DNA of 64,000 bases from Actinomycetota bacterium (GTDB taxonomy: Bacteria; Actinomycetota; AC-67), in NCBI GenBank assembly GCA_046713235.1, contig JBKKBZ010000116.1, forward strand, positions 2,742-66,741, read 5' to 3'. The position numbers and the translations under genes were made by a program. Below, one piece after another: positions 7,253 to 49,881 of this stretch. Under the pieces are notes generated by a model. That model saw nothing but the letters and a program-made list of their open reading frames with translations, was not told the origin of the DNA and made no database searches. The number at the start of each line of letters is the position of its first letter. Within the stretch, counting starts at the first letter, position 1.

Positions 7253-7329
<77 letters not shown>

Positions 7330-7350
7330 GCGGCCGGACAGGCTACCACT

Positions 7351-7713
7351 TCAGCCCTTTTCCGACACCGAGATCTCGATGCCGCCGACCACGTCGGCGA
7401 TGAGGTTGTAGAGAAACACGCCGCAGACGGTGATGATCGTCCAGACCACGGTCCCGAGGGCCCCGATGAGGAAGAACCACTTGAAGATCGCTCCGCCGGA
7501 GACCGTCACGGGATAATCCACGTCGGCGAACAACTGCTCGATGTCGGCGATGACCCCGAAGGCTTTCAGCATCGCGAAGATGATGGCCGAGCCGAGCAGA
7601 AAGACGAGGAGCAAGCAAAAGTAAAACAGGAGGGAGAACTTGAGGACCGACCACGGGTCGATCTTGCGGACGACGAGGCGAGCGCGGCGCCAGCCGCGAG
7701 GCGCAGCGGACAT
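7351..7713 (-). CDS. DUF3566 transmembrane protein (Rv0007-like)
   Basis: N-terminus RRARLVVRKIDPWSVLKFSLLF plus 2 TM segments. Position after gyrA matches Mycobacterium. Confidence 0.7.
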   Translation of the reverse strand: MSAAPRGWRRARLVVRKIDPWSVLKFSLLFYFCLLLVFLLGSAIIFAMLKAFGVIADIEQLFADVDYPVTVSGGAIFKWFFLIGALGTVVWTIITVCGVFLYNLIADVVGGIEISVSEKG

Positions 7714-7727
7714 CGTCTGGCCGGTCG

Positions 7728-9164
7728 CTATCCCTTGACGACCGCCAGAGGGCGCAGGCGCGCCACTCTCCTCGATAACTTCGCCCCCTCGCAGGTCTCC
7801 ACCACCGCGGACACATCCTTATACGCGGCCGGCGCCTCCTCCGCCAGCAGGCCCCATTGTGTCGCATTCACCAGCACACCGGCCGCAGCGAGGTCGGCCG
7901 CGAGCTGTCGGCCGCTGACCTGCTTCTTGGCTTGCGTGCGGCTCATCATTCGGCCGGCGCCGTGGCAGGTGGAGGAAAACGCCCGAGCGCCCTCGGCGAC
8001 ACCGGCCAGCACGTAAGAGGCCGTGCCCATCGAGCCCGGGATGAGCACCGGCTGTCCGGCCTCACGAAACGCATCTGCCAGCTCCGGGTGGCCGGGGCCG
8101 AACGCCCGCGTGGCGCCCTTGCGGTGAACGCAGAGAAGCCGCTCGCGCCCATCCACGTCGTGCCGTTCCAGCTTGGCAAGGTTATGCGAGACGTCGTACA
8201 CGAGCCGAAGGCCGAGATCCTCGGCACTCCGGCCGAAAACGGTCTCGAAGCACCGGCGAACCTCGTGTGCCAGAAGGTGCCTGTTCGCCCGGGCGAAATT
8301 CGCCGCCGCGGACATCGCCGACAGATACCGCTCACCTTCCGGCGTTCCCACCGGGGCACACGCGAGCTGCCGATCCGGGACGGTGATCTTGTATGCGGCC
8401 ATCGCCCGGTCGAACTTACGGACCTCGTCGGTGCAGACTTGGTGGCCGAGTCCTCGGGATCCGCAGTGCATCATCACCGTGATCGTCCCGGGCTCGAGGT
8501 CGAAGGCCGCAGCGGCGCGCTCGTCGAAGATTTCCTCGATCGCCTGGATCTCGAGGAAATGATTGCCGGCACCGAGCGATCCGAGCTGCGTCGCGCCGCG
8601 CTCGCGTGCCCGATCGCTTACCGCGTCGGGATCCGCTTCGAGGCGGCCCCCGTCCTCGCACCGCTCCACGTCCGAGGGCCAGCCGACACCGCGCTCGAGC
8701 AGCGCAACCACTCCGTCGGTGAGCACGTCCCGCATCTGGGCACCGTCGAGCTTCATGAGACCGTCGCGGCCCGTCCCCCGGGGTATGCGGCGCGCCAGCT
8801 CGTCGATCAGACGCTGCATCGCCGGCGCTGCTTCGGCGAGCAAGAGGTCGCTTCGCAACAGTCGCACACCGCAACAGATGTCGAATCCGACGCCCCCCGG
8901 TGTGACGACGCCGCCATTCTCGACGTCGGTCGCCGCAACCCCGCCGACGGGGAAGCCATAGCCCCAATGCACGTCGGGCATCGCGAACGAAGCGCGAACG
9001 ATGCCGGGAAGCATCGCCACGTTGGCCACCTGATCGAGGGCTCGATCCTCTTTCGCCTTTACCAATAACCCCTCGCTGGCAAAGACGTGGCCCGGCACGA
9101 CCATACCCGCCCGGGCGCCCACCGGGATCTGCCATTCGTACGGTCCGAGGCGGAGCAGGTCCAT
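7728..9164 (-). CDS. rtcB: RNA-splicing ligase RtcB
   Basis: Motifs DVHWGYGFPVGG, NHFLEIQ and C-terminal STCHGAGRMMSR. Start taken at the second Met (9164); an upstream ATG at 9203 would overlap archease by 31 nt. Confidence 0.85.
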   Translation of the reverse strand: MDLLRLGPYEWQIPVGARAGMVVPGHVFASEGLLVKAKEDRALDQVANVAMLPGIVRASFAMPDVHWGYGFPVGGVAATDVENGGVVTPGGVGFDICCGVRLLRSDLLLAEAAPAMQRLIDELARRIPRGTGRDGLMKLDGAQMRDVLTDGVVALLERGVGWPSDVERCEDGGRLEADPDAVSDRARERGATQLGSLGAGNHFLEIQAIEEIFDERAAAAFDLEPGTITVMMHCGSRGLGHQVCTDEVRKFDRAMAAYKITVPDRQLACAPVGTPEGERYLSAMSAAANFARANRHLLAHEVRRCFETVFGRSAEDLGLRLVYDVSHNLAKLERHDVDGRERLLCVHRKGATRAFGPGHPELADAFREAGQPVLIPGSMGTASYVLAGVAEGARAFSSTCHGAGRMMSRTQAKKQVSGRQLAADLAAAGVLVNATQWGLLAEEAPAAYKDVSAVVETCEGAKLSRRVARLRPLAVVKG

Positions 9165-9172
9165 CGGGGCCT

Positions 9173-9577
9173 CTACACGTCGACGTAGACCCGAGCCATC
9201 CATTCGGACCTAGTCTTGGACACGGTCAAGCCGTGATAAGTGACCGCCTTGATCATGGGGCCGGCCGGCTCGGAGTCGATAACCACATAGACGTCCCCCT
9301 CCGCACGAGTCGGCGACACCTGCCGGAGGTCGGCGCCTACCACAAGCTCGCCTCGGGTCTCGAAGCGGTACAGGCACTCCTCCAGGAACTGGACGAGGGT
9401 GTCCTCAAGGTCGGACCCCTCGACCAGGATCGCCCGGGCGTCGTCGGAATCGTCGGGCTCGTCGTCGAGGATGATCGCCGCAAGGGCGCGAGCCGCGTCG
9501 GCGAACAGGACGGGAAGCTCGGGCGCACGCACCTCGATTCCCACGTCCGCCGTGTGGGGGATGATCTCGTACGGCAT
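9173..9577 (-). CDS. Archease (RtcB activator)
   Basis: MPYEIIPHTADVGIEV... N-terminal archease signature, 134 aa, immediately upstream of rtcB. Confidence 0.75.
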   Translation of the reverse strand: MPYEIIPHTADVGIEVRAPELPVLFADAARALAAIILDDEPDDSDDARAILVEGSDLEDTLVQFLEECLYRFETRGELVVGADLRQVSPTRAEGDVYVVIDSEPAGPMIKAVTYHGLTVSKTRSEWMARVYVDV

Positions 9578-14130: not shown

Positions 14131-14475
14131 TCATTCCTGTCTGGCCCGGCCTACGACGGCCCGCACCCGAGTCACCGATCCGGGCGGTAAGACGCCCGCG
14201 ACCCGCTCCAGCAAGGTTGCAGAAAGCAGCGTGAGCTCGGTGGCCCACGTGGGATTCTCGGCGCGAACGAAGAGCTCGCCGTCGACGAGCTTCACCGGTT
14301 CGCATCGGGCCGCGACGGTGGCCCCTACGATCTCCGCCCACCGCGCGGCAAGCTTGCCCAGAGCAAGCCGCTCCGACCAGCCGGGCCGATGACTGAGGTC
14401 CTCAATCAGCTCACCGAGACGCCGCGGGTCCTTGCGCCGCGGGTCCGTGTTGCCGTCATCACGCCGCATCGACAC
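14131..14475 (-). CDS. dciA: DUF721/DciA-like protein (helicase-loader family, Rv0004-like)
   Basis: 114 aa. Lies between recF and gyrB as in Mycobacterium. The DUF721 call rests on gene order and family sequence pattern; no specific motif was identified. Confidence 0.6.
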   Translation of the reverse strand: MSMRRDDGNTDPRRKDPRRLGELIEDLSHRPGWSERLALGKLAARWAEIVGATVAARCEPVKLVDGELFVRAENPTWATELTLLSATLLERVAGVLPPGSVTRVRAVVGRARQE

Positions 14476-15562
14476 GTCCCTCGCCGACGTGGAAGACCTT
14501 GGCTTCGAGCGAATCGGGAACCGCCCCCGGATCGGCCGCCGTGATGATGGCTTGCGCTCCGTCGGGCAGGGCGGCGGCCACTCGCTCGCGCCGCGCCGGG
14601 TCGAGCGGCTCGAGGGCGTCGTCGAGAAGCAGGACCGGCTCGTCCCCGCCCGTCGCTTCCCTCACCGAACTCCACGCCGCGAGCGCGAGCGCGAGCGTCA
14701 CCACCCACGCCTCTCCCTGCGACGCATGGGTCCGTGCCGGCAGGCCGTCGATCCCGAAAGCGACGTCGTCGCGATGAGGCCCCACCAGCGTCATCGCGCG
14801 GATGATCTCGTCCGATCGGCGCTCCTCAATGCGCGCGAGCATCGCCGCTGCCCAAGCTGCTGCGTCTGTTCCCACCCCGGGATGAGGAATGTTCGGACGA
14901 TAGGCGATCTCGAGCAGCCCGCGTCCCGCCACCGCCGCCCAGGCCGCGGCGGCGTGCGGCGCCAGCGCGCGGATGGCGGCTTCGCGCCTCGCCGAGATCT
15001 CTCCGCCGGAGGCCGAGAGCTGCGCGTCCCAGACCTCGATCCCGTCGGGCCTGCGCCCGGCCGACTCCCGTAGCAACGCGTTGCGCTGTCTAAGCGCGCG
15101 TTCGTAATCGCGGAGCACCCCGGCCAGCCGCGGCGTCACTTGCACGAGGATCTCATCGAGGAAGCGCCGGCGCTCGAGCGGATCTCCCCGAACGACCTCG
15201 ACCCGCTCCGGCGCAAAGAGACATGCACGAAGCACGCCGAGAACCTCGCGCTTGCGCCGAAGCGGCTCCCCGTCTAGCCGAACCCGGGACGCCCCCTGAG
15301 AACGGATCTCTACCTCGACCACCTGCTGCCTCACGTCGCGCTGCGTGTGAGCCCGAACGACGGCGCTCACACGGGACCGCTGGATGAGCGCCGGATCGGG
15401 GGCCCGGTGCGAGCCGAGAGTCGCGGCGTACCACGCTGCCTCAACGATTGAGGTTTTACCCGACGCGTTCGGTCCGACCAGTGCCACGCGTCCGGACGGG
15501 ATCGCGAGATCGAGTCCTTCCCAGCACCGGAACCCGTTCAGCTCGAGACGAGCGAGCCGCAC
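14459..15562 (-). CDS. recF: DNA replication/repair protein RecF
   Basis: Walker A GPNASGKTS and an SMC-like N-terminus (LELNGFRCWEGLDL). Confidence 0.9.
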   Translation of the reverse strand: MRLARLELNGFRCWEGLDLAIPSGRVALVGPNASGKTSIVEAAWYAATLGSHRAPDPALIQRSRVSAVVRAHTQRDVRQQVVEVEIRSQGASRVRLDGEPLRRKREVLGVLRACLFAPERVEVVRGDPLERRRFLDEILVQVTPRLAGVLRDYERALRQRNALLRESAGRRPDGIEVWDAQLSASGGEISARREAAIRALAPHAAAAWAAVAGRGLLEIAYRPNIPHPGVGTDAAAWAAAMLARIEERRSDEIIRAMTLVGPHRDDVAFGIDGLPARTHASQGEAWVVTLALALAAWSSVREATGGDEPVLLLDDALEPLDPARRERVAAALPDGAQAIITAADPGAVPDSLEAKVFHVGEGRVDAA

Positions 15563-15570
15563 CCCGCCCT

Positions 15571-16662
15571 CTAGGAAAGGCGTACCGGCATCAGTAGGTA
15601 CTGGAAACCGTCGTCCTGCGCGCCACGTAGCAGCGCCGGCTTTAGGCCGTCGCGCACCGACAAGATCAGCTCTGGTCCCTCGACCGCAGCGATCCCGTCG
15701 CTGAGATACCCCGGGTTGAACGCCACGGTCAGCGCTTCTCCCTCGAAAGTCGCGGCCACGTGCTCCGAAGCCTCTCCAAGATCTTGCGTCCCCGACGTCA
15801 GGCGCACACCTTCGGGCGAGAGATCGAGACGGACGGGCGCACCCTGCTGCGCGAGAATACCGACGCGCCTCACCGACTCGGCGAATGCTTCGCGCTCGAG
15901 ACGAAGGACATTGGGCTGGGCGTCTGGAACCAGTTGCCTCCAGTTCGGAAACTCACCCTCGATCAGACGAGTGGTGAGCCTGCGGGTGCCGGCCTCGACC
16001 CCGGCCTGCGTCGTCCCGAGCGCCAGTCGTACCTCGCTTTCATTGTCGGCGGCGCGCGCCGCTTCGCTCAAGGCGCGCCCCGGCACGACCCGGCGGAGCT
16101 CCTCGTCCGGCCCCGACCACGTGAGTGATCGCACGGCAAGCCGGTAGCTGTCGGTCGCCACCAAGGTAAGGGCGGAAGGACCGGCCTCCAGCAGGACGCC
16201 GGTCAAGATCGGCCGAGCTTCGTCGCGCGAAGCCGCCCGAGCCACCTGACTCACCGCGGAGAGGAAGAGCTTGGCGTCCAGTACACCGGTGTGGCCTTGG
16301 TCGGGAGCGCCGAGCGCAGGGAAATCGTCTGCAGGAAGGACGCGGAGCGTGAACTCCGCGGCACCTCCGACTATGCGAGCTTGAGACGCGTCGGTTTCGA
16401 GGAGAACTCCTCCTTCGGGAAGAGCGCGCACGATCTCGCCGAGCAGACGCCCCGGAAGCACGGCCCGGCCCGGCTGCTCTACCTGCCCCTCGATCTCCGC
16501 CCGGCCGGCGACCTCAAGGTCCGTGCCGGCGAACACGACTTTTCCTTCCCCTGCCTCGATGAGAACCCCGCCGAGCACCGGGAGCGTCGCCTTGCTTCCG
16601 ACCGATCGAAGAACCCATAAAACGACGTCGGCGATCTGGTCACGCTCGATCCGGATCTTCAC
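15571..16662 (-). CDS. dnaN: DNA polymerase III beta sliding clamp
   Basis: 363 aa with the three-domain clamp pattern. Sits downstream of dnaA. Confidence 0.9.
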   Translation of the reverse strand: MKIRIERDQIADVVLWVLRSVGSKATLPVLGGVLIEAGEGKVVFAGTDLEVAGRAEIEGQVEQPGRAVLPGRLLGEIVRALPEGGVLLETDASQARIVGGAAEFTLRVLPADDFPALGAPDQGHTGVLDAKLFLSAVSQVARAASRDEARPILTGVLLEAGPSALTLVATDSYRLAVRSLTWSGPDEELRRVVPGRALSEAARAADNESEVRLALGTTQAGVEAGTRRLTTRLIEGEFPNWRQLVPDAQPNVLRLEREAFAESVRRVGILAQQGAPVRLDLSPEGVRLTSGTQDLGEASEHVAATFEGEALTVAFNPGYLSDGIAAVEGPELILSVRDGLKPALLRGAQDDGFQYLLMPVRLS

Positions 16663-16848
16663 GGTTTCACACCTCCAGGGAGAATCGTACTTCGCGGCTG
16701 TGACAGAACCTTATCCACCCGATCTGTATCCAGGCTTTTAAAGGAATAATTCTGTAGTAACAGTCGTAGGGGCTGGGGACGCTGTGGAGAATGCCACGCC
16801 TTTGGGGAATTCGGCCGTCCCCCGCTGTGCACGGTGTCGTGGATGACA
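16663..16848. promoter_or_regulatory. Candidate oriC (dnaA-dnaN intergenic region)
   Basis: DnaA-box-like 9-mers: TTATCCACC (16711-19), TGTGGAGAA which is the reverse complement of TTCTCCACA (about 16784-92), and TCGTGGATGACA (about 16837-48). An AT-rich stretch (cttttaaaggaataattctgtagtaacag, about 16735-16765) stands out against the high-GC background. Confidence 0.6.
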
Positions 16849-18225
16849 TCAGGCCGATTCCACCTGCTGCGCGGTTCTTCTTCGGATTCTCGCCGTCAAC
16901 TCTTGGACCTGTGAATAGATTTGGCGGTGCTCGCCCATCAGCTTTCGGATCTTGCCATCGGCGTGCAAAACCGTGGTGTGGTCTCGTCCGCCGAAGATCT
17001 CGCCTAGCTTCGGAAGGGACAGCGGGGTCAGCTCCCGGCACAGGTACATGGCCACCTGCCGGGCCAGTACGATCGGGCGCTGGCGCGACGGACCCAGGAG
17101 ATCGCCGCGCGAGATGCCGAAGAACGAAACGCATTCCGCGATAACGACGTCGGGCCGGATCTCGCTGGCGCCCTCGGGAGCCAGCAGCGGGTTGAGAGCC
17201 TCTCGTGCCAGCTCCAGCGTCAGCGGCAGTCTCGACAGGGAGGACCACGATACGACCCGGATGAGCCGGCCCTCGAGCTCACGGATGTTGTTTTGCACGC
17301 GAGTCCCGATGAACTCGAGGACGTCATCGGGAACCTCGAAGCCTTCCGCCCGGGCCTTATTGTGGAGAATCGCCACCCGGGTTTCGAGATCAGGGGGCTG
17401 AACATCGGTGATAAGACCCCATTCGAAGCGGGTGCGCAGGCGATCCTCCAGCGAGGCGATGGCGCTCGGTGGCCGGTCGGAAGAGATGACTATCTGCCGG
17501 CCGTCGTTGTAGAGGGCGTTGAAGGTATGAAAGAACTCCTCTTGGGTGCGCTCACCGGTTGCCAGGAACTGGATATCGTCTACGAGCAGCACGTCGGTCT
17601 CGCGGTAACGCCGGCGGAACGCCGGCATCTTCTCCTCCCGCACGCCGCTGATGAACTCGTTCATGAATTGCTCGCTCGACACGTACCGCACGACCGCGGT
17701 CGGGTAGAGCGAACGGACGCAGTGTCCAATCGCGTGAAGCAAGTGGGTCTTTCCTAGACCGGCTCCCCCATAGATGAAGAGCGGGTTGTACGACCGGGCC
17801 GGTTGCTCGGCGACCGCCAGTGCCGCCGCGTGGGCGAACCGGTTCGAGGGACCGATCACGAACGTGTCGAAGCTGTATTTCGGAATGAGCTGCGAAGCTT
17901 CGGCGGCCGCGCGCAGTGGTGCCGGTACCGGGTCGGCCGGAGCGTCGAGGTCGAACACCTCCGGGGGCGCCGGCCGTGCGTCGACCGTGACCGATAGAGA
18001 AAGCGGCCTCTCCGCGGCAGCCTGCAGAGCCTCCGTGACTAGGCCTGCGTATCTTGTCTCCAGCCACTCCTTGGCGAACGCACTCGGGACTCCGAGGACG
18101 ATTTCGTCCCCGGAGAGGCTGAGCGGCCGGCTTCCTTCGATCCAGGTCTTGGCGCCGGGTGAGGGCAAGCGGTCACGCAGCGTCGCAAGGGTCCTCTGCC
18201 AAATTACGTCAAGTTCGTCGCCCAC
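16849..18225 (-). CDS. dnaA: Chromosomal replication initiator DnaA
   Basis: AAA+ Walker [12 protein letters not shown] and a domain IV HTH. Start chosen as GTG at 18225, preceded by AGGGAGG. The in-frame ATG at 18399 would add a non-DnaA-like N-terminus. Confidence 0.88.
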
Positions 18226-18234
18226 GGGCCTCCC

Positions 18235-18266
18235 TGGTCCACAATGGTTATCCACGGTTGTGCAAA
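18235..18266. promoter_or_regulatory. DnaA-box cluster upstream of dnaA
   Basis: TGGTCCACA (18235-43), TTATCCACG (18248-56) and TTGTGCAAA directly upstream of the dnaA start. A further TTTCCACAG lies at 18384-92. Confidence 0.5.
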
Positions 18267-18501
18267 ACCCTGGGGAAGGATTCACGCGTAGACAAACAGC
18301 AACTTCGCGAGGCCGAGGGAAGGAAGGGCTTGCCCAGTCGCCGACGCTCATCGGCGGACGAGCGGGCGCGAAGATACCATCGGTTTCCACAGACCTCAAG
18401 AGCGGGAAAGCGCCTCACTTTTGCCCCTCTCTAACGGTGACGAGAGGCGCCGATCGGCACGGTTGCGCCCCCACAGGCCGACCCGTAGACTGCGGACTTC
18501 G

Positions 18502-18636
18502 ATGAAGCGCACCTATCAGCCACACGTTCGGCGGCGGAAGCGCACGCACGGGTTCCGTGCACGTATGAAGACGCGCGCCGGCCGCGCCGTGCTTGCTCGC
18601 CGCCGGCGCAAGGGTCGCGCCGAGCTGACCGTGTGA
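18502..18636 (+). CDS. rpmH: 50S ribosomal protein L34
   Basis: [42 protein letters not shown]. Confidence 0.9.
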
Positions 18637-20359: not shown

Positions 20360-21082
20360 GTGCGAGAGGCGGTCGAGACCGAGGGGCGTACGGTCGAGGA
20401 AGCCATCGACGCGGCGCTGGATCTCCTCGGAGCGACCGATGACGAGGTCGAGATCAAGGTCCTCGCCGAGGGAGGCACCTGGCGGGGCAATGAGATCGCG
20501 CCGGCGCGAGTCCGGGTCGGTTTTCGCGATGAGCTCAGTCCCCAGGAGCGAGCCGAGCGAGAAGAGCGCGTGCGGGAGGAGCCTCTAGATCCGGCGCTCG
20601 GGGAAGAGATCCGCCGACAGGCCGAGGTTTGCCGTGATTTCCTGGTGGGGCTGCTCGAAAAGATGGATATCGAGGCCGAAGTTACCGCGTCGACCGGCCG
20701 GGACGGGGTGGAGTTGGAGATCGAGGCAGACGGGGACGACGGGGCGCTGCTCATAGGCCGGCACGGCCTGACCCTCGATGCGCTCCAGCTGCTTACGCGG
20801 GCTCAATCCTCACGCAGCGGTGGGCCTCGATTGCCGATATCCCTCGAGATCGCCGGATATCGAGCGCGCAGGAGGGCTTCTCTGCACCATCAGGCCGGGC
20901 GCGCTGCGGAGCGCGCCCGTCGGACGGGACGTAGCATTGCCTTGGCCCCCATGACCCCTCTTGAGCGCAAGGTCGTCCACGAGGCGATTGCCGAGCTCGG
21001 GGGCGTGCGATCCCGCAGCGAAGGGGAAGCCCTCGATCGACATGTGGTGATCGAGTGGGACCAATCGCATTCCAACGGTTAG
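20360..21082 (+). CDS. Jag/KhpB-like RNA-binding protein (Jag_N, KH, R3H)
   Basis: GTG start. C-terminal R3H motif PMTPLERKVVHEAIAELGGVRSRSEG. Position after yidC is conserved. Confidence 0.75.
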   Translation: MREAVETEGRTVEEAIDAALDLLGATDDEVEIKVLAEGGTWRGNEIAPARVRVGFRDELSPQERAEREERVREEPLDPALGEEIRRQAEVCRDFLVGLLEKMDIEAEVTASTGRDGVELEIEADGDDGALLIGRHGLTLDALQLLTRAQSSRSGGPRLPISLEIAGYRARRRASLHHQAGRAAERARRTGRSIALAPMTPLERKVVHEAIAELGGVRSRSEGEALDRHVVIEWDQSHSNG

Positions 21083-21096
21083 TTTCACGGGAAACA
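21081..21096. promoter_or_regulatory. parS-like site (AGTTTCACGGGAAACA)
   Basis: 14 of 16 match to the TGTTTCACGTGAAACA consensus. Sits at the jag/rsmG junction, where origin-proximal parS sites typically lie. Confidence 0.4.
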
Positions 21097-21748: not shown

Positions 21749-22615
21749 ATGGAAGATTCTGGGATTATTTTTTCATTCTGCAACCAGAAGGGCGGGGTGG
21801 GCAAGACGACCACCGCGGTCAATCTCGGCGCATGCCTTGCCGAGGTGGGCGCCAAGGTTCTTCTCGTAGACGTGGATCCTCAGGGAAACGCGTCCTCGGG
21901 GGTCGGCATCGTTCGGGATCAAGGCGCCGTCGGCACCTACGAGCTGCTGGGTGGCGCAGGCCTGGACGAGGCCGTCACGACGACGTCGGTGCCCGGTCTG
22001 GACGTGATTCCGTCGTCGATGGACCTGGCCGGAGCGGAGATCGAGCTCGTTTCGGCGCTGGCGCGCGAGTCCAAGCTGCGCGGCGCGCTGGCCCCAGCGC
22101 GGAGCCGTTACGACTACATCCTCGTAGACTCCCCGCCGTCGCTCGGCTTGCTGGCGATCAACGCGCTGGTGGCAGCCGACGCCGTAATCATCCCGATCCA
22201 GTGCGAGTACTACGCGCTGGAGGGCCTGGGACAGCTCCTGCGCACGATCGATCTCGTTCGCGAGGGATTGAACGGCGATCTCGAGATCGGGGGCGTCGTG
22301 CTCACCATGTACGACGCACGCACCAGGCTGTCGGAGCAGGTGGTGAACGATGTGCGCGCCCACCTCGGGGACGTCGTCTTTCGCATGGTCATTCCGCGTT
22401 CGGTTCGGCTGTCTGAAGCGCCGGGCTATGGAAAGCCGGTGACACTCTACGATTCGGCATCGCGAGGTGCGTTTACCTACAGGGCGCTGTGTCGTGAGCT
22501 CGTGCACCGCTGGCCACGGGGCGCCGCCGCGGCGCTGCTCGACCAGCCGGCCGCGGTCGTGAGCCTGGACGATCGAGTCGAGCGTTCGGCCGGCGTCGAG
22601 AGGAGAGCAGGGTGA
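21749..22615 (+). CDS. parA: Chromosome partitioning ATPase ParA/Soj
   Basis: Deviant Walker A CNQKGGVGKTTTAVNLG. Has an about 35-aa C-terminal extension. Confidence 0.9.
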   Translation: MEDSGIIFSFCNQKGGVGKTTTAVNLGACLAEVGAKVLLVDVDPQGNASSGVGIVRDQGAVGTYELLGGAGLDEAVTTTSVPGLDVIPSSMDLAGAEIELVSALARESKLRGALAPARSRYDYILVDSPPSLGLLAINALVAADAVIIPIQCEYYALEGLGQLLRTIDLVREGLNGDLEIGGVVLTMYDARTRLSEQVVNDVRAHLGDVVFRMVIPRSVRLSEAPGYGKPVTLYDSASRGAFTYRALCRELVHRWPRGAAAALLDQPAAVVSLDDRVERSAGVERRAG

Positions 22616-34012: not shown

Positions 34013-35397
34013 CCTGCCGCCTCGAATGTGATTTCGGCGACGGCGGCCTGGAACGGGAGGTTGCTTCCCGAGCCGGCGTTGGCAAGCTCCGTTATCCACA
34101 GCAGCCAGTAACGACCCTGGTTTTCCCCGGACGGCTTCACCGCGCCGTCGGAGCTGGCCGTAAACGACGCGACGACCCTGTAGTCGGCCGCAGACCCTCC
34201 GGCCGCGCCGGAGACTCGCCATTCACCACGCCAGCCGGCGATGGGGCTGCGCAGACGGATCGTATCGACGCGCACGTTGGCTCCGAGATCGAAGAGCAGG
34301 CCGACGCCGGGCTTGGAGCCGCCGAGGTTTGCCGACGCGTAGCCCACAGTCGTCCATGCGCTGGTGGCGTCACCGTCGAGAACCAGCGCTACCTTTTCGG
34401 GGTGTTCGCTGCCGTTTCCGGGATTCGGGTCGAAGTCCCGGACGGCTGCCACGGATAGCGCCCCCCGGGGCGAAGGGGAAGGGGATGCCGCGCCCTCGCG
34501 TCGCTGGGGAAGGAGCTTCGCAACGGTCAAGCCGGCGACGATCGCCCCGGCCGCGACGCCGAGGAACAACAAGAGCGCGAGCAACCACCGGCCCTCCGTT
34601 CGCAGGTAGCCCGGCTCCCGAGCGGCCGGCGGTGCCTTGGGGGCTGCGAACGGCTCGACTGCGTCGAGAAAGCTCGGCAGGTCCGAGTGCCCACCGAGAG
34701 CGCGTTCGACGGCCGAAGCGAGTTCCGCAGTCACCCCGCGCGATCCTGTCAGGGAGGTGCCCGGTGTGTTGGGCGGGCGGCCGGTGAGCATGTGGACGGT
34801 GAGAGCGGCCAGTGCCCGAAGGTCTGCCTCTGCCGGCTCCTTCGGATCGGGACCTGGGTACCCCTCCGGCTGTACCGGTGGATCGGCCGGCTCTCCTCGC
34901 GCTCCTCCGGCAAGCATCGCAACCTCCACCAGGCCGGGTCCGAGCAGCTTGGCTCGGCCTTCCTCGTCGAATGCCACCCAGGCCGGACCGATGGCGCCGT
35001 GCGTCCGCCCCGCTTGATGAAGGACCCGGAGCGCGGCCCCGACACTGGATGCCACCCGCGCCGCCTCGGCAACCGGGAGCGTGCCGTCGCGCAGCCGCTC
35101 GGCGAGCCGCCCGCCCGTCGGGTGCTCGGTGACCAGGTACGGCGGATCGTCGCCGCAGTCGTAGATCTGCACCAGACGCCGGTCGACGAGCTGGGCGTCC
35201 CGTGCGGCGATGCGCAGAAGCGCCTCGCGGGTCCCGGCATCGCCGGCAACATCGGGACCCAGCATGTGAACGAGCACCGGCCGGTTCAGGACGGTGTCGC
35301 GCGCCTCCCAAACCGGCCCGGCCGGCGCCGGCCACGCCAGACGTTCCACGCGGTAACGCCCCGCGATCACGGTGCCGGTTCGCACGACGTCTTTCAT
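34009..35397 (-). CDS. Pseudokinase-TM-extracellular domain protein (homolog of the C-terminal module of mycobacterial MviN/MurJ)
   Basis: Kinase-like fold with degenerate catalytic residues (VLVHML replaces VAxK; HQAGRTHGAIGPAWVAF replaces HRD-type). Followed by one TM helix (WLLALLLFLGVAAGAIVAGL) and an about 190-aa extracytoplasmic domain. Confidence 0.6.
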   Translation of the reverse strand: MKDVVRTGTVIAGRYRVERLAWPAPAGPVWEARDTVLNRPVLVHMLGPDVAGDAGTREALLRIAARDAQLVDRRLVQIYDCGDDPPYLVTEHPTGGRLAERLRDGTLPVAEAARVASSVGAALRVLHQAGRTHGAIGPAWVAFDEEGRAKLLGPGLVEVAMLAGGARGEPADPPVQPEGYPGPDPKEPAEADLRALAALTVHMLTGRPPNTPGTSLTGSRGVTAELASAVERALGGHSDLPSFLDAVEPFAAPKAPPAAREPGYLRTEGRWLLALLLFLGVAAGAIVAGLTVAKLLPQRREGAASPSPSPRGALSVAAVRDFDPNPGNGSEHPEKVALVLDGDATSAWTTVGYASANLGGSKPGVGLLFDLGANVRVDTIRLRSPIAGWRGEWRVSGAAGGSAADYRVVASFTASSDGAVKPSGENQGRYWLLWITELANAGSGSNLPFQAAVAEITFEAAG

Positions 35398-49813: not shown

Positions 49814-49881
49814 CACGATATCTCGGAACGATATATCGACGCGATATATCGACGCGATATATCGAGTCGATATATTGTCGG
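49814..49881. repeat. Tandem array of a 13-bp palindromic unit (CGATATATCGACG), about 5 copies
   Basis: Three near-perfect units at 49830-49868 flanked by degenerate copies. Located in the padR/DUF5318 divergent intergenic region. Confidence 0.7.

Follow-up and report, generated by a model that had tools for sequence, protein, structure and literature searches.

In this study, we analysed 64,000 nucleotides of the contig JBKKBZ010000116.1 (assembly GCA_046713235.1) from an actinomycetotal bacterium of the lineage AC-67, a stretch that we refer to as the window, and describe the region around the initiator gene dnaA, for which a preliminary description made from the letters alone had proposed a chromosomal origin of replication (oriC) between dnaA and dnaN. 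The minus strand carries dnaN (15571–16662) and dnaA (16849–18228; GTG start; TIGR00362, 514 bits), and the plus strand carries rpmH (18502–18636), with dnaN and rpmH assigned by NCBIfam. The start of dnaA is that of the database protein P0001, to which the DnaA of the window is identical in sequence. With these gene limits the dnaN–dnaA gap spans 16663–16848 and is 186 bp long, exactly as had been stated, and the dnaA–rpmH gap spans 18229–18501; the GC content of the window, given earlier as about 70%, measures about 66%. The genes of a typical origin neighbourhood, rpmH, dnaA, dnaN, recF, gyrB and gyrA, are all present, and their order is matched in eight relatives. It is the dnaN–dnaA gap that we propose as a compact oriC, on the basis of its boxes, its conserved architecture and the skew minimum that falls within it. 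The same gap also carries the ribosome-binding site of dnaN (Shine–Dalgarno sequence GGAGG, 16676–16672, minus strand) and probably the dnaN promoter, for which TACGAT (16684–16689, minus strand) is a possible −10 hexamer, the sequence GAGTACGAT being kept in the window and in the relatives L161, L162 and L166.

All six DnaA-box-like 9-mers that had been quoted for the two gaps could be located where they had been reported. At least three of them had been assigned to the dnaN–dnaA gap, and these are TTATCCACC (16711–16719, plus strand, one mismatch), which is inverted and is found between dnaN and the AT-rich element described below, where it possibly also regulates dnaN; TTCTCCACA on the opposite strand (16783–16791, minus strand, one mismatch); and TCATCCACG (16838–16846, minus strand, two mismatches), which directly follows the dnaA stop codon. 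Two weaker boxes accompany them on the minus strand: CCGTGCACA (16826–16834), co-oriented with TCATCCACG at a distance of 12 bp from start to start, and GCGTCCCCA (16774–16782, four mismatches), which abuts TTCTCCACA. The gap can be read as containing two co-oriented minus-strand pairs, 16846–16826, of which TCATCCACG is the distal member, and 16791–16774. A comparison of the number of boxes with shuffled sequence, which the preliminary description had named as a possible refutation, revealed an enrichment both window-wide and in each gap. Nine sites in the 64 kb match TTATCCACA with at most one mismatch where 2.5 are expected, a number reached in none of 100 shuffles. When up to two mismatches per site are allowed, the two densest 300-bp clusters of the 64 kb coincide with the gaps on either side of dnaA. 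Because intergenic DNA is less GC-rich than the rest, each gap was also shuffled on its own, with dinucleotide frequencies preserved, which controls for its lower GC content. Under this control, 0.038 sites with at most one mismatch are expected in the dnaN–dnaA gap and two are observed (P = 6e-4); for the dnaA–rpmH gap, with up to two mismatches allowed, the expectation is 0.27 sites and four are observed (P = 2e-4). It has been proposed that an oriC should have at least three DnaA boxes with a mean spacing below 100 bp (PMC7561715); in the dnaN–dnaA gap three boxes with at most two mismatches fall within 136 bp, with the two weaker ones in addition (P = 6e-4 to 8e-3, local shuffles). Four relatives show the same pattern, with 2–5 box-like sites per gap (upstream gap 320 bp; downstream gap 138–166 bp) as compared to 0.16–0.56 per 300 bp elsewhere. 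The sole perfect copy of TTATCCACA in the window is found at 34092–34100, isolated, with neither neighbouring boxes nor AT-rich DNA.

In addition to boxes, the dnaN–dnaA gap contains the elements of a basal unwinding system (BUS), which the preliminary description had not listed, namely tandem boxes, a GC cluster, five DnaA-trios and an AT-rich element. In Bacillus subtilis, a BUS consists of co-oriented boxes and a GC cluster followed by DnaA-trios (3′-GAT-5′, that is 5′-TAG-3′) running into the unwinding element (PMC8287927; PMC6669920); the definitions of BUS and trios used here follow PMC8287927, PMC10316083 and PMC10721633. According to the published rule, a box with at most two mismatches faces the trios, an optional weaker tandem box may have up to four mismatches, and the spacer from box to first trio is at most 16 bp, typically 10–13 bp, with 13 bp the commonest value (PMC8287927). 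In the window, TTCTCCACA is the stronger BUS box and points toward the trios, with the abutting GCGTCCCCA as the second box, and both have the orientation seen at the other loci with the motif. Between boxes and trios lies the GC cluster (16770–16773; GGGC on the plus strand, GCCC on the minus strand), whose CC columns are invariant in nine aligned sequences. The trio array 5′-TAG TAA CAG TCG TAG-3′ occupies 16755–16769 on the plus strand of the window, which is the trio strand, and reads CTA CGA CTG TTA CTA on the minus strand. The trio closest to the boxes is TAG (3′-GAT-5′, 16767–16769), separated from TTCTCCACA by 13 bp, and outward from the boxes the trios are TAG, TCG, CAG, TAA and TAG, with the central bases A, C, A, A and A.

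Directly beyond the trios follows a putative AT-rich unwinding element (16733–16754), which includes the clade-conserved sequence GCTTTTAAA (TTTAAAAGC on the minus strand, 16734–16742). The strikingly AT-rich stretch that had been noticed in this gap turned out to have both the highest AT content and the weakest duplex in the window: positions 16736–16765 are 73% AT, the highest value among all 30-mers, and nearest-neighbour duplex energies place the weakest 20-, 30- and 40-mers of the 64 kb at 16736–16756, 16735–16765 and 16721–16761 (z = 4.3–4.65; z = 4.64 for the 30-mer). The corresponding place, right after the trios in the dnaA–dnaN gap, likewise holds the least stable 30-mer in each of four 21-kb loci from relatives. 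On these predicted energies, the boxes have an AT-rich unwinding element next to them, as is expected of an oriC.

The comparison of related loci allowed us to ask which parts of this arrangement are kept. A protein search with DnaA gave relatives at 65–77% identity, labelled, where a label was given, as uncultured Actinomycetota and in one case as Acidobacteria, and scans of a sequence collection gave mostly distant homologues (45–65% identity) and one close relative (L081) among the matches listed. The comparison set comprised the loci of eight relatives and one metagenome contig; dnaA and the core of adjacent genes are found in all nine, the longer loci extend the order to the DciA gene and gyrB, and four loci of 21 kb also have parA–parB in order. 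The dnaA–dnaN gaps of the relatives are 137–172 bp long. In an alignment of nine dnaA–dnaN gaps (A1), a near-invariant block stands amid diverged flanks, and the nine relatives that have it carry DnaA proteins with 69–77% identity. The invariant columns cluster in TCC.CA...CC TAC..C and AAAAG blocks, and in the direction of dnaA the block reads TTnTCCACA-nnGTCC[A/C]CA-G[G/C]CC-CTA-CTA-CGA..., followed a few bases on by TTTAAAAGC. The TCC.CA columns of the TTCTCCACA box are invariant in nine of nine sequences, the position of the second BUS box (GCGTCCCCA) reads GTCCACA or GTCCCCA in all nine, and the trio columns TAC..C are invariant. A box at the position of 16838–16846 is present in most relatives (A1 columns 15–24), and the position homologous to CCGTGCACA reads CCGTCCACA or TCCTCCACA in L162 and L161. 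On the dnaN side, six of the nine sequences have a reverse-oriented box-like site at variable positions, partly overlapping the dnaN ribosome-binding site. Two small open reading frames that reach into the gap, 16659–16832 on the minus strand and 16523–16741 on the plus strand, were not accepted as genes, since conservation follows blocks of DNA motifs and not a reading frame.

The DnaA protein encoded next to this module has the residues that such a module would call on. Its best homologue of solved structure is B. subtilis DnaA in the BUS complex (8BTG, 465 bits), and the box-reading segment GRDHTTV is conserved. Alignment to 8BTG shows that the positions used for trio capture in B. subtilis, N187, I190, I193, R202 and E228, are N, I, V, R and E in the DnaA of the window; the residues for single-strand binding are thus kept, with I193 changed to V.

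Two further features bear on the location of the origin in the chromosome. Over the 64 kb of the window, the cumulative G−C skew has its minimum at 16731, inside the dnaN–dnaA gap, and in four relatives (21-kb loci) the minimum lies between approximately 160 bp before the dnaA stop codon and approximately 250 bp into dnaN, inside the gap in one of the four. In each of the five genomes (the window and L165–L168), dnaA is the one gene of the neighbourhood with a negative skew on its coding strand (−0.02 to −0.05); the local minimum lies near the gap because the coding strand of dnaA is C-rich. The negative skew fits a head-on gene just past the origin, and it could also reflect amino-acid composition. 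We regard the skew as consistent with an origin in the gap and not as decisive, the all-position result for dnaA giving weak support. The second feature is a parS-like palindrome, AGTTTCACGGGAAACA (21081–21096), at the jag/rsmG junction upstream of parA–parB and 4.3 kb from the proposed origin. It is the only match in the window and is marginal when taken alone, since one or more matches also arise in 7 of 100 shuffles; syntenic sites at the jag/rsmG junction are found in six of eight relatives, two relatives having two copies. Judged by its sequence and position, this site may mark an origin-proximal centromere.

Taken together, box enrichment, the weakest duplex of the window, a conserved module and synteny support the proposal of an oriC between dnaA and dnaN, and we consider it likely from this sequence evidence that the gap 16663–16848 is the site at which the chromosomal origin is unwound, and that it is of the BUS type. 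A number of observations weigh against this placement. Only three boxes in the gap are good matches, the other two being weak, and the two closest relatives do not keep the position of the inverted box at 16711. When the actinobacterial consensus TTGTCCACA is used, no significant enrichment is seen in the dnaN–dnaA gap (P = 0.05–0.12), whereas that of the dnaA–rpmH gap is significant. The skew covers only 64 kb (21 kb in the relatives) and is partly explained by dnaA alone, and at third codon positions it is too noisy to discriminate. In addition, a literal re-implementation of the published BUS rule, which asks for at least three consecutive central-A trios within 16 bp of a box, finds no match in the gap. 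The rule fails here because of the second trio, TCG: three central-A trios in a row are first reached at a distance of 19 bp from the box. Among the nine clade sequences, three (L165, L166 and L168) satisfy the rule; the remaining ones carry a central-C trio, CGA, as the second or third of their trios, and several Streptomyces loci have one at position 4. With a relaxed rule that accepts a central A or C, which is permissive in GC-rich DNA, the gap has five contiguous trios at 16755–16769. Changing the central A of the trios to C in B. subtilis left strand separation near the wild-type level, trios with a central C gave better origin firing than those with G or T, and the authors remarked that the trios recognized by DnaA homologues may be more diverse (PMC10721633). 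By analogy, the departure from the literal rule is probably not a defect of the module.

As the literal rule misses this gap and picks a spurious overlap upstream of dnaA, a strict motif was derived from the clade, CC[AC]CA[GC]{3,5}TAC[TG][AG]C, and searched on both strands. It has one match in the window, within the dnaN–dnaA gap, and 25 matches in 1.11 Mb of dnaA loci, of which 24 lie just downstream of dnaA and on the dnaA strand. The loci with a match include those of Streptomyces (TTATCCACGGTATCCACAGGCCCTACTACTAC), Siminovitchia fortis (Bacillaceae) and Clostridium tyrobutyricum. This distribution bears on the idea that the true oriC lies outside the window and that all boxes described here are transcriptional operators for the genes dnaA and dnaN; some bacteria do have an origin remote from dnaA. 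Such an arrangement would fit the fact that 64 kb of the replicon are visible, in which a global skew minimum cannot be located, and autoregulation of DnaA through boxes at its own promoter is common. However, operators need no GC cluster, trios and weakest duplex kept as one block across nine relatives, and this block is also shared with the dnaA–dnaN regions of Streptomyces and Firmicutes; furthermore, the local skew minimum and the conserved parS-like site agree with an origin at this place. We therefore consider an origin elsewhere on the replicon very unlikely.

On the other side of dnaA, the second cluster of boxes that had been reported for the rpmH–dnaA gap was confirmed. TGGTCCACA (18235–18243, plus strand) and TTATCCACG (18248–18256, plus strand) are as quoted; the third quoted site, TTTCCACAG, is present but better read one base earlier as GTTTCCACA (18383–18391, plus strand), and a further box in the dnaA leader, TTTTGCACA (18259–18267, minus strand), had not been listed. 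An alignment of ten dnaA–rpmH gaps (A2) resolves five conserved elements: the rpmH promoter, the dnaA promoter, a stem–loop at the start of the leader, a CCUUCCC motif and the three leader boxes, which immediately precede the dnaA Shine–Dalgarno sequence and whose columns CACA, GTGGA and TGTGGA are invariant in ten of ten sequences. The predicted dnaA promoter (18371–18399, minus strand) consists of TTGAGG (18399–18394), a 17-bp spacer and TATCTT (18376–18371), with TCTTG and TA...TC columns that are invariant, and the box GTTTCCACA lies within its spacer, as a box does in seven of the ten sequences. The predicted rpmH promoter (18463–18491, plus strand) consists of TTGCGC, a 17-bp spacer and TAGACT, with conserved AGTCTACG and GTCAA columns. 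A generic promoter and terminator scan reported neither of these promoters, and we infer the dnaA promoter from its conservation; the single match of that scan (16915–16886) lies inside dnaA and was disregarded. The dnaA leader (approximately 18229–18364, minus strand) has the conserved stem–loop just after the predicted transcription start, followed by the CCUUCCC motif, and in the consensus fold this motif pairs with the dnaA Shine–Dalgarno sequence. The fold is weak (−16.9 kcal/mol), with no net covariation, and the modelled pairing could provide translational control.

An origin in which the DNA is unwound within the rpmH–dnaA gap itself (18229–18501), the boxes between dnaA and dnaN serving only to regulate dnaN, could point to the switch of gene strands that is located there, to the larger number of box-like sites and to their stricter conservation. 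However, this gap has no AT-rich element, being 62% GC, and holds none of the least stable segments of the window; it also lacks a box–GC–trio module, the sole literal match to the BUS rule being a spurious overlap with a neighbouring box. Its conserved blocks are explained by two promoters, the leader and three boxes, and the cumulative skew minimum is at 16731 and not at 18.2–18.5 kb. An unwinding site upstream of dnaA is in our view extremely unlikely. Because the upstream cluster has neither trios nor an AT-rich element, the simplest reading of its sequence is that it probably serves the autoregulation of DnaA, by occlusion of the promoter and as a roadblock in the leader, and it is possibly an auxiliary half of the origin as well. 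In the autoregulated dnaA promoters of E. coli, B. subtilis and Streptomyces, DnaA boxes likewise overlap promoter and leader; in the window, in contrast, one box is in the −35/−10 spacer and three are about 100 nt downstream against the ribosome-binding site, a placement expected to work as a roadblock and not in the manner of a classical operator.

The possible role of the upstream cluster as part of the origin leads to a bipartite model, in which the downstream gap holds the unwinding site, the cluster at 18235–18267 and 18383–18391 is a required second half, and dnaA is looped out between them. This model follows B. subtilis, Clostridioides difficile and Helicobacter pylori and overlaps with the placement that we favour in everything except the role of the upstream cluster. 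Box clusters are present on both sides of dnaA with an unwinding element in only one of them, which is the layout of a bipartite origin, the three leader boxes are invariant in all ten sequences, and the downstream gap is small and poor in boxes, like the downstream half of Firmicute origins (160–260 bp, 4–7 sites). Moreover, B. subtilis needs a distal box that acts through a loop, besides the box pair adjacent to the trios (PMC6669920), and in C. difficile both halves of the origin are needed for melting in vitro (PMC7561715). On the other hand, the upstream boxes sit in the spacer of the dnaA promoter and against the ribosome-binding site, where autoregulation alone explains them, and the downstream gap already has a distal box pair of its own (16826–16846). 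That the upstream cluster is required for initiation seems to us rather doubtful.

The preliminary description had stated that the locus matches the actinobacterial oriC layout. This holds for location and synteny, but in size and number of boxes the locus is closer to those of Bacillales and Clostridia. The dnaA–dnaN gaps of eleven Streptomyces loci are 817–1057 bp long and have 22–29 box-like sites with at most two mismatches, and those of Micromonosporaceae are 490–1174 bp long with 13–37 such sites. In the clade of the window, the gap is 137–186 bp long with 1–5 such sites, similar in size and box count to the roughly 160–260 bp and 4–7 sites of most Bacillales and Clostridia loci (9 of 13; two are shorter and two longer). 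Seen against the long Streptomyces-type oriC of several hundred bp and at least 12 boxes, the 186 bp and three boxes with at most two mismatches found here fall short, and even with the two weak boxes counted, the likeness to the origins of Streptomyces and Micromonosporaceae is one of phylum, dnaA–dnaN location and synteny. The Streptomyces loci nevertheless share the core TTATCCACGGTATCCACAGGCCCTACTACTACGAC, including a central-C CGA trio after CTA trios.

The closest functional parallel is the downstream half of the B. subtilis oriC (incC), the work on which is reportedly that of Richardson (2016 and 2019) and Pelliciari (2021 and 2023). The two have in common the location between dnaA and dnaN, tandem boxes, a GC cluster, 5′-TAG-type trios on the opposite strand, an AT-rich element, a second box cluster upstream of dnaA and a DnaA that keeps the trio-capture residues. 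The locus in the window differs in its high-GC genome (66%), in a smaller number of trios, one of which is a natural central-C trio (TCG), in BUS boxes that adjoin each other without a spacer, and in having four boxes rather than large clusters upstream of dnaA. The context of helicase loading also differs, with a DciA gene here and DnaD, DnaB and DnaI in B. subtilis, for which no search was made in the window. The oriC2 of C. difficile, an unwinding region mapped by experiment, has a trio tract, 5′-CACCTACTACTATTACTACTATGA-3′, before the unwinding element in the dnaA–dnaN gap, and box clusters on both sides of dnaA (PMC7561715), and a Clostridium locus of the comparison, L040, has a match to the strict motif; the C. 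difficile genome, in contrast, is AT-rich, with 5–9 boxes downstream and 9–19 boxes upstream. Very probably, the locus described here is an ordinary origin that is unusually small for an actinobacterium, with a compact, Firmicute-like downstream half that carries the BUS and a small upstream cluster.

On the model of the B. subtilis BUS, initiation at this locus would start with the docking of DnaA-ATP on the box pair 16791–16774. From this double-stranded anchor, DnaA would oligomerize onto the trio strand, capture the bases of the trios and stretch the strand, and melting would then spread into the AT-rich element at 16733–16754, where the replicative helicase could be loaded with the aid of DciA, encoded 2.2 kb away. 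The building or the stability of the oligomer may be aided by the distal pair of boxes together with the inverted one at 16711–16719. At the second cluster (18235–18267 and 18383–18391), DnaA would most likely repress its own gene, and this cluster may also loop to the origin.

The gene proposed to supply the helicase-loading factor lies at 14131–14475 on the minus strand and is assigned to DUF721 (NF002871); the syntenic genes of the relatives belong to the DciA family PF05258. It overlaps the end of recF (14459–15562) by 17 bp, which suggests, from the sequence, a translational coupling of the probable helicase-loading factor with recF. The genes recF, gyrB and gyrA are, like dnaA and dnaN, on the minus strand, and rnpA, yidD and yidC are on the plus strand (NCBIfam); Pfam adds jag, rsmG, parA, parB and an aminotransferase gene downstream on the plus strand and genes for archease, RtcB and an EamA transporter farther out on the minus strand. 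The order is dnaA-dnaN-recF-dciA-gyrB-gyrA-archease-rtcB, an open reading frame (7343–7867) and tRNA-Ile (7253–7329, minus strand, tRNA scan) on the minus side, and rpmH-rnpA-yidD-yidC-jag-rsmG-parA-parB on the plus side. The open reading frame 7343–7867 has no family assignment and occupies the place of a DUF3566 gene in the relatives. Rfam and tRNA scans gave no match within the origin region, tRNA-Ile being the only one found. A divergence of gene strands exactly at the origin had been claimed in the preliminary description, with a minus-strand run from 7.2 kb and a plus-strand run to 25.4 kb. The switch exists and the plus run does end at about 25.4 kb, but the minus run starts at about 6.2 kb, with the EamA gene, and the switch sits in the dnaA–rpmH gap, 1.4 kb away from the proposed oriC. 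Directly beyond gyrA, an RtcB RNA ligase and archease pair occupies 7728–9577, a placement that is kept in three of four relatives with long loci and absent from L167. Two other places in the window have a weak duplex. The second least stable 30-mer (21749–21779) falls in the first codons of parA (ATGGAAGATTCTGGGATTATTTTTTCATTCT), and at 49817–49880 five copies of the palindrome CGATATATCG follow each other with a 13-bp period, an array that belongs to the three or four weakest duplexes in the window. On one side it is flanked by a minus-strand gene for a PadR-family regulator, on the other by a DUF5318 gene, which is followed by a class A penicillin-binding protein gene, and it is probably an operator array.

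Nothing in these results overturns the current understanding of bacterial origins, and their modest novelty lies in the small size of the origin for an actinobacterium and in the natural central-C trios. For a lineage that is known only from metagenome bins, the location of the origin would provide the coordinate zero and the orientation of the replichores, and would aid genome closure, estimates of growth rate from read depth, and annotation. We suggest tentatively that this lineage has one of the smallest actinobacterial origins (137–186 bp, about five boxes), with the build of a bipartite Firmicute origin and not that of the origins of Streptomyces or Mycobacterium, and that its trios naturally alternate between a central A and a central C (5′-TCG TAG-3′ units). 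If this is true, the alternating trios would parallel in nature the A-to-C trios that were engineered in B. subtilis and shown to function there, and would hint at the way in which the unwinding module accommodates a high GC content. A compact high-GC origin with natural central-C trios could in this way serve as a test case for the nucleobase-capture model. Finally, because its core sequence is common to the window, Streptomyces, a Bacillaceae species and Clostridium, the comparison gives support to the view that the module of box, GC cluster, trios and AT-rich element is ancestral to Firmicutes and Actinomycetota.

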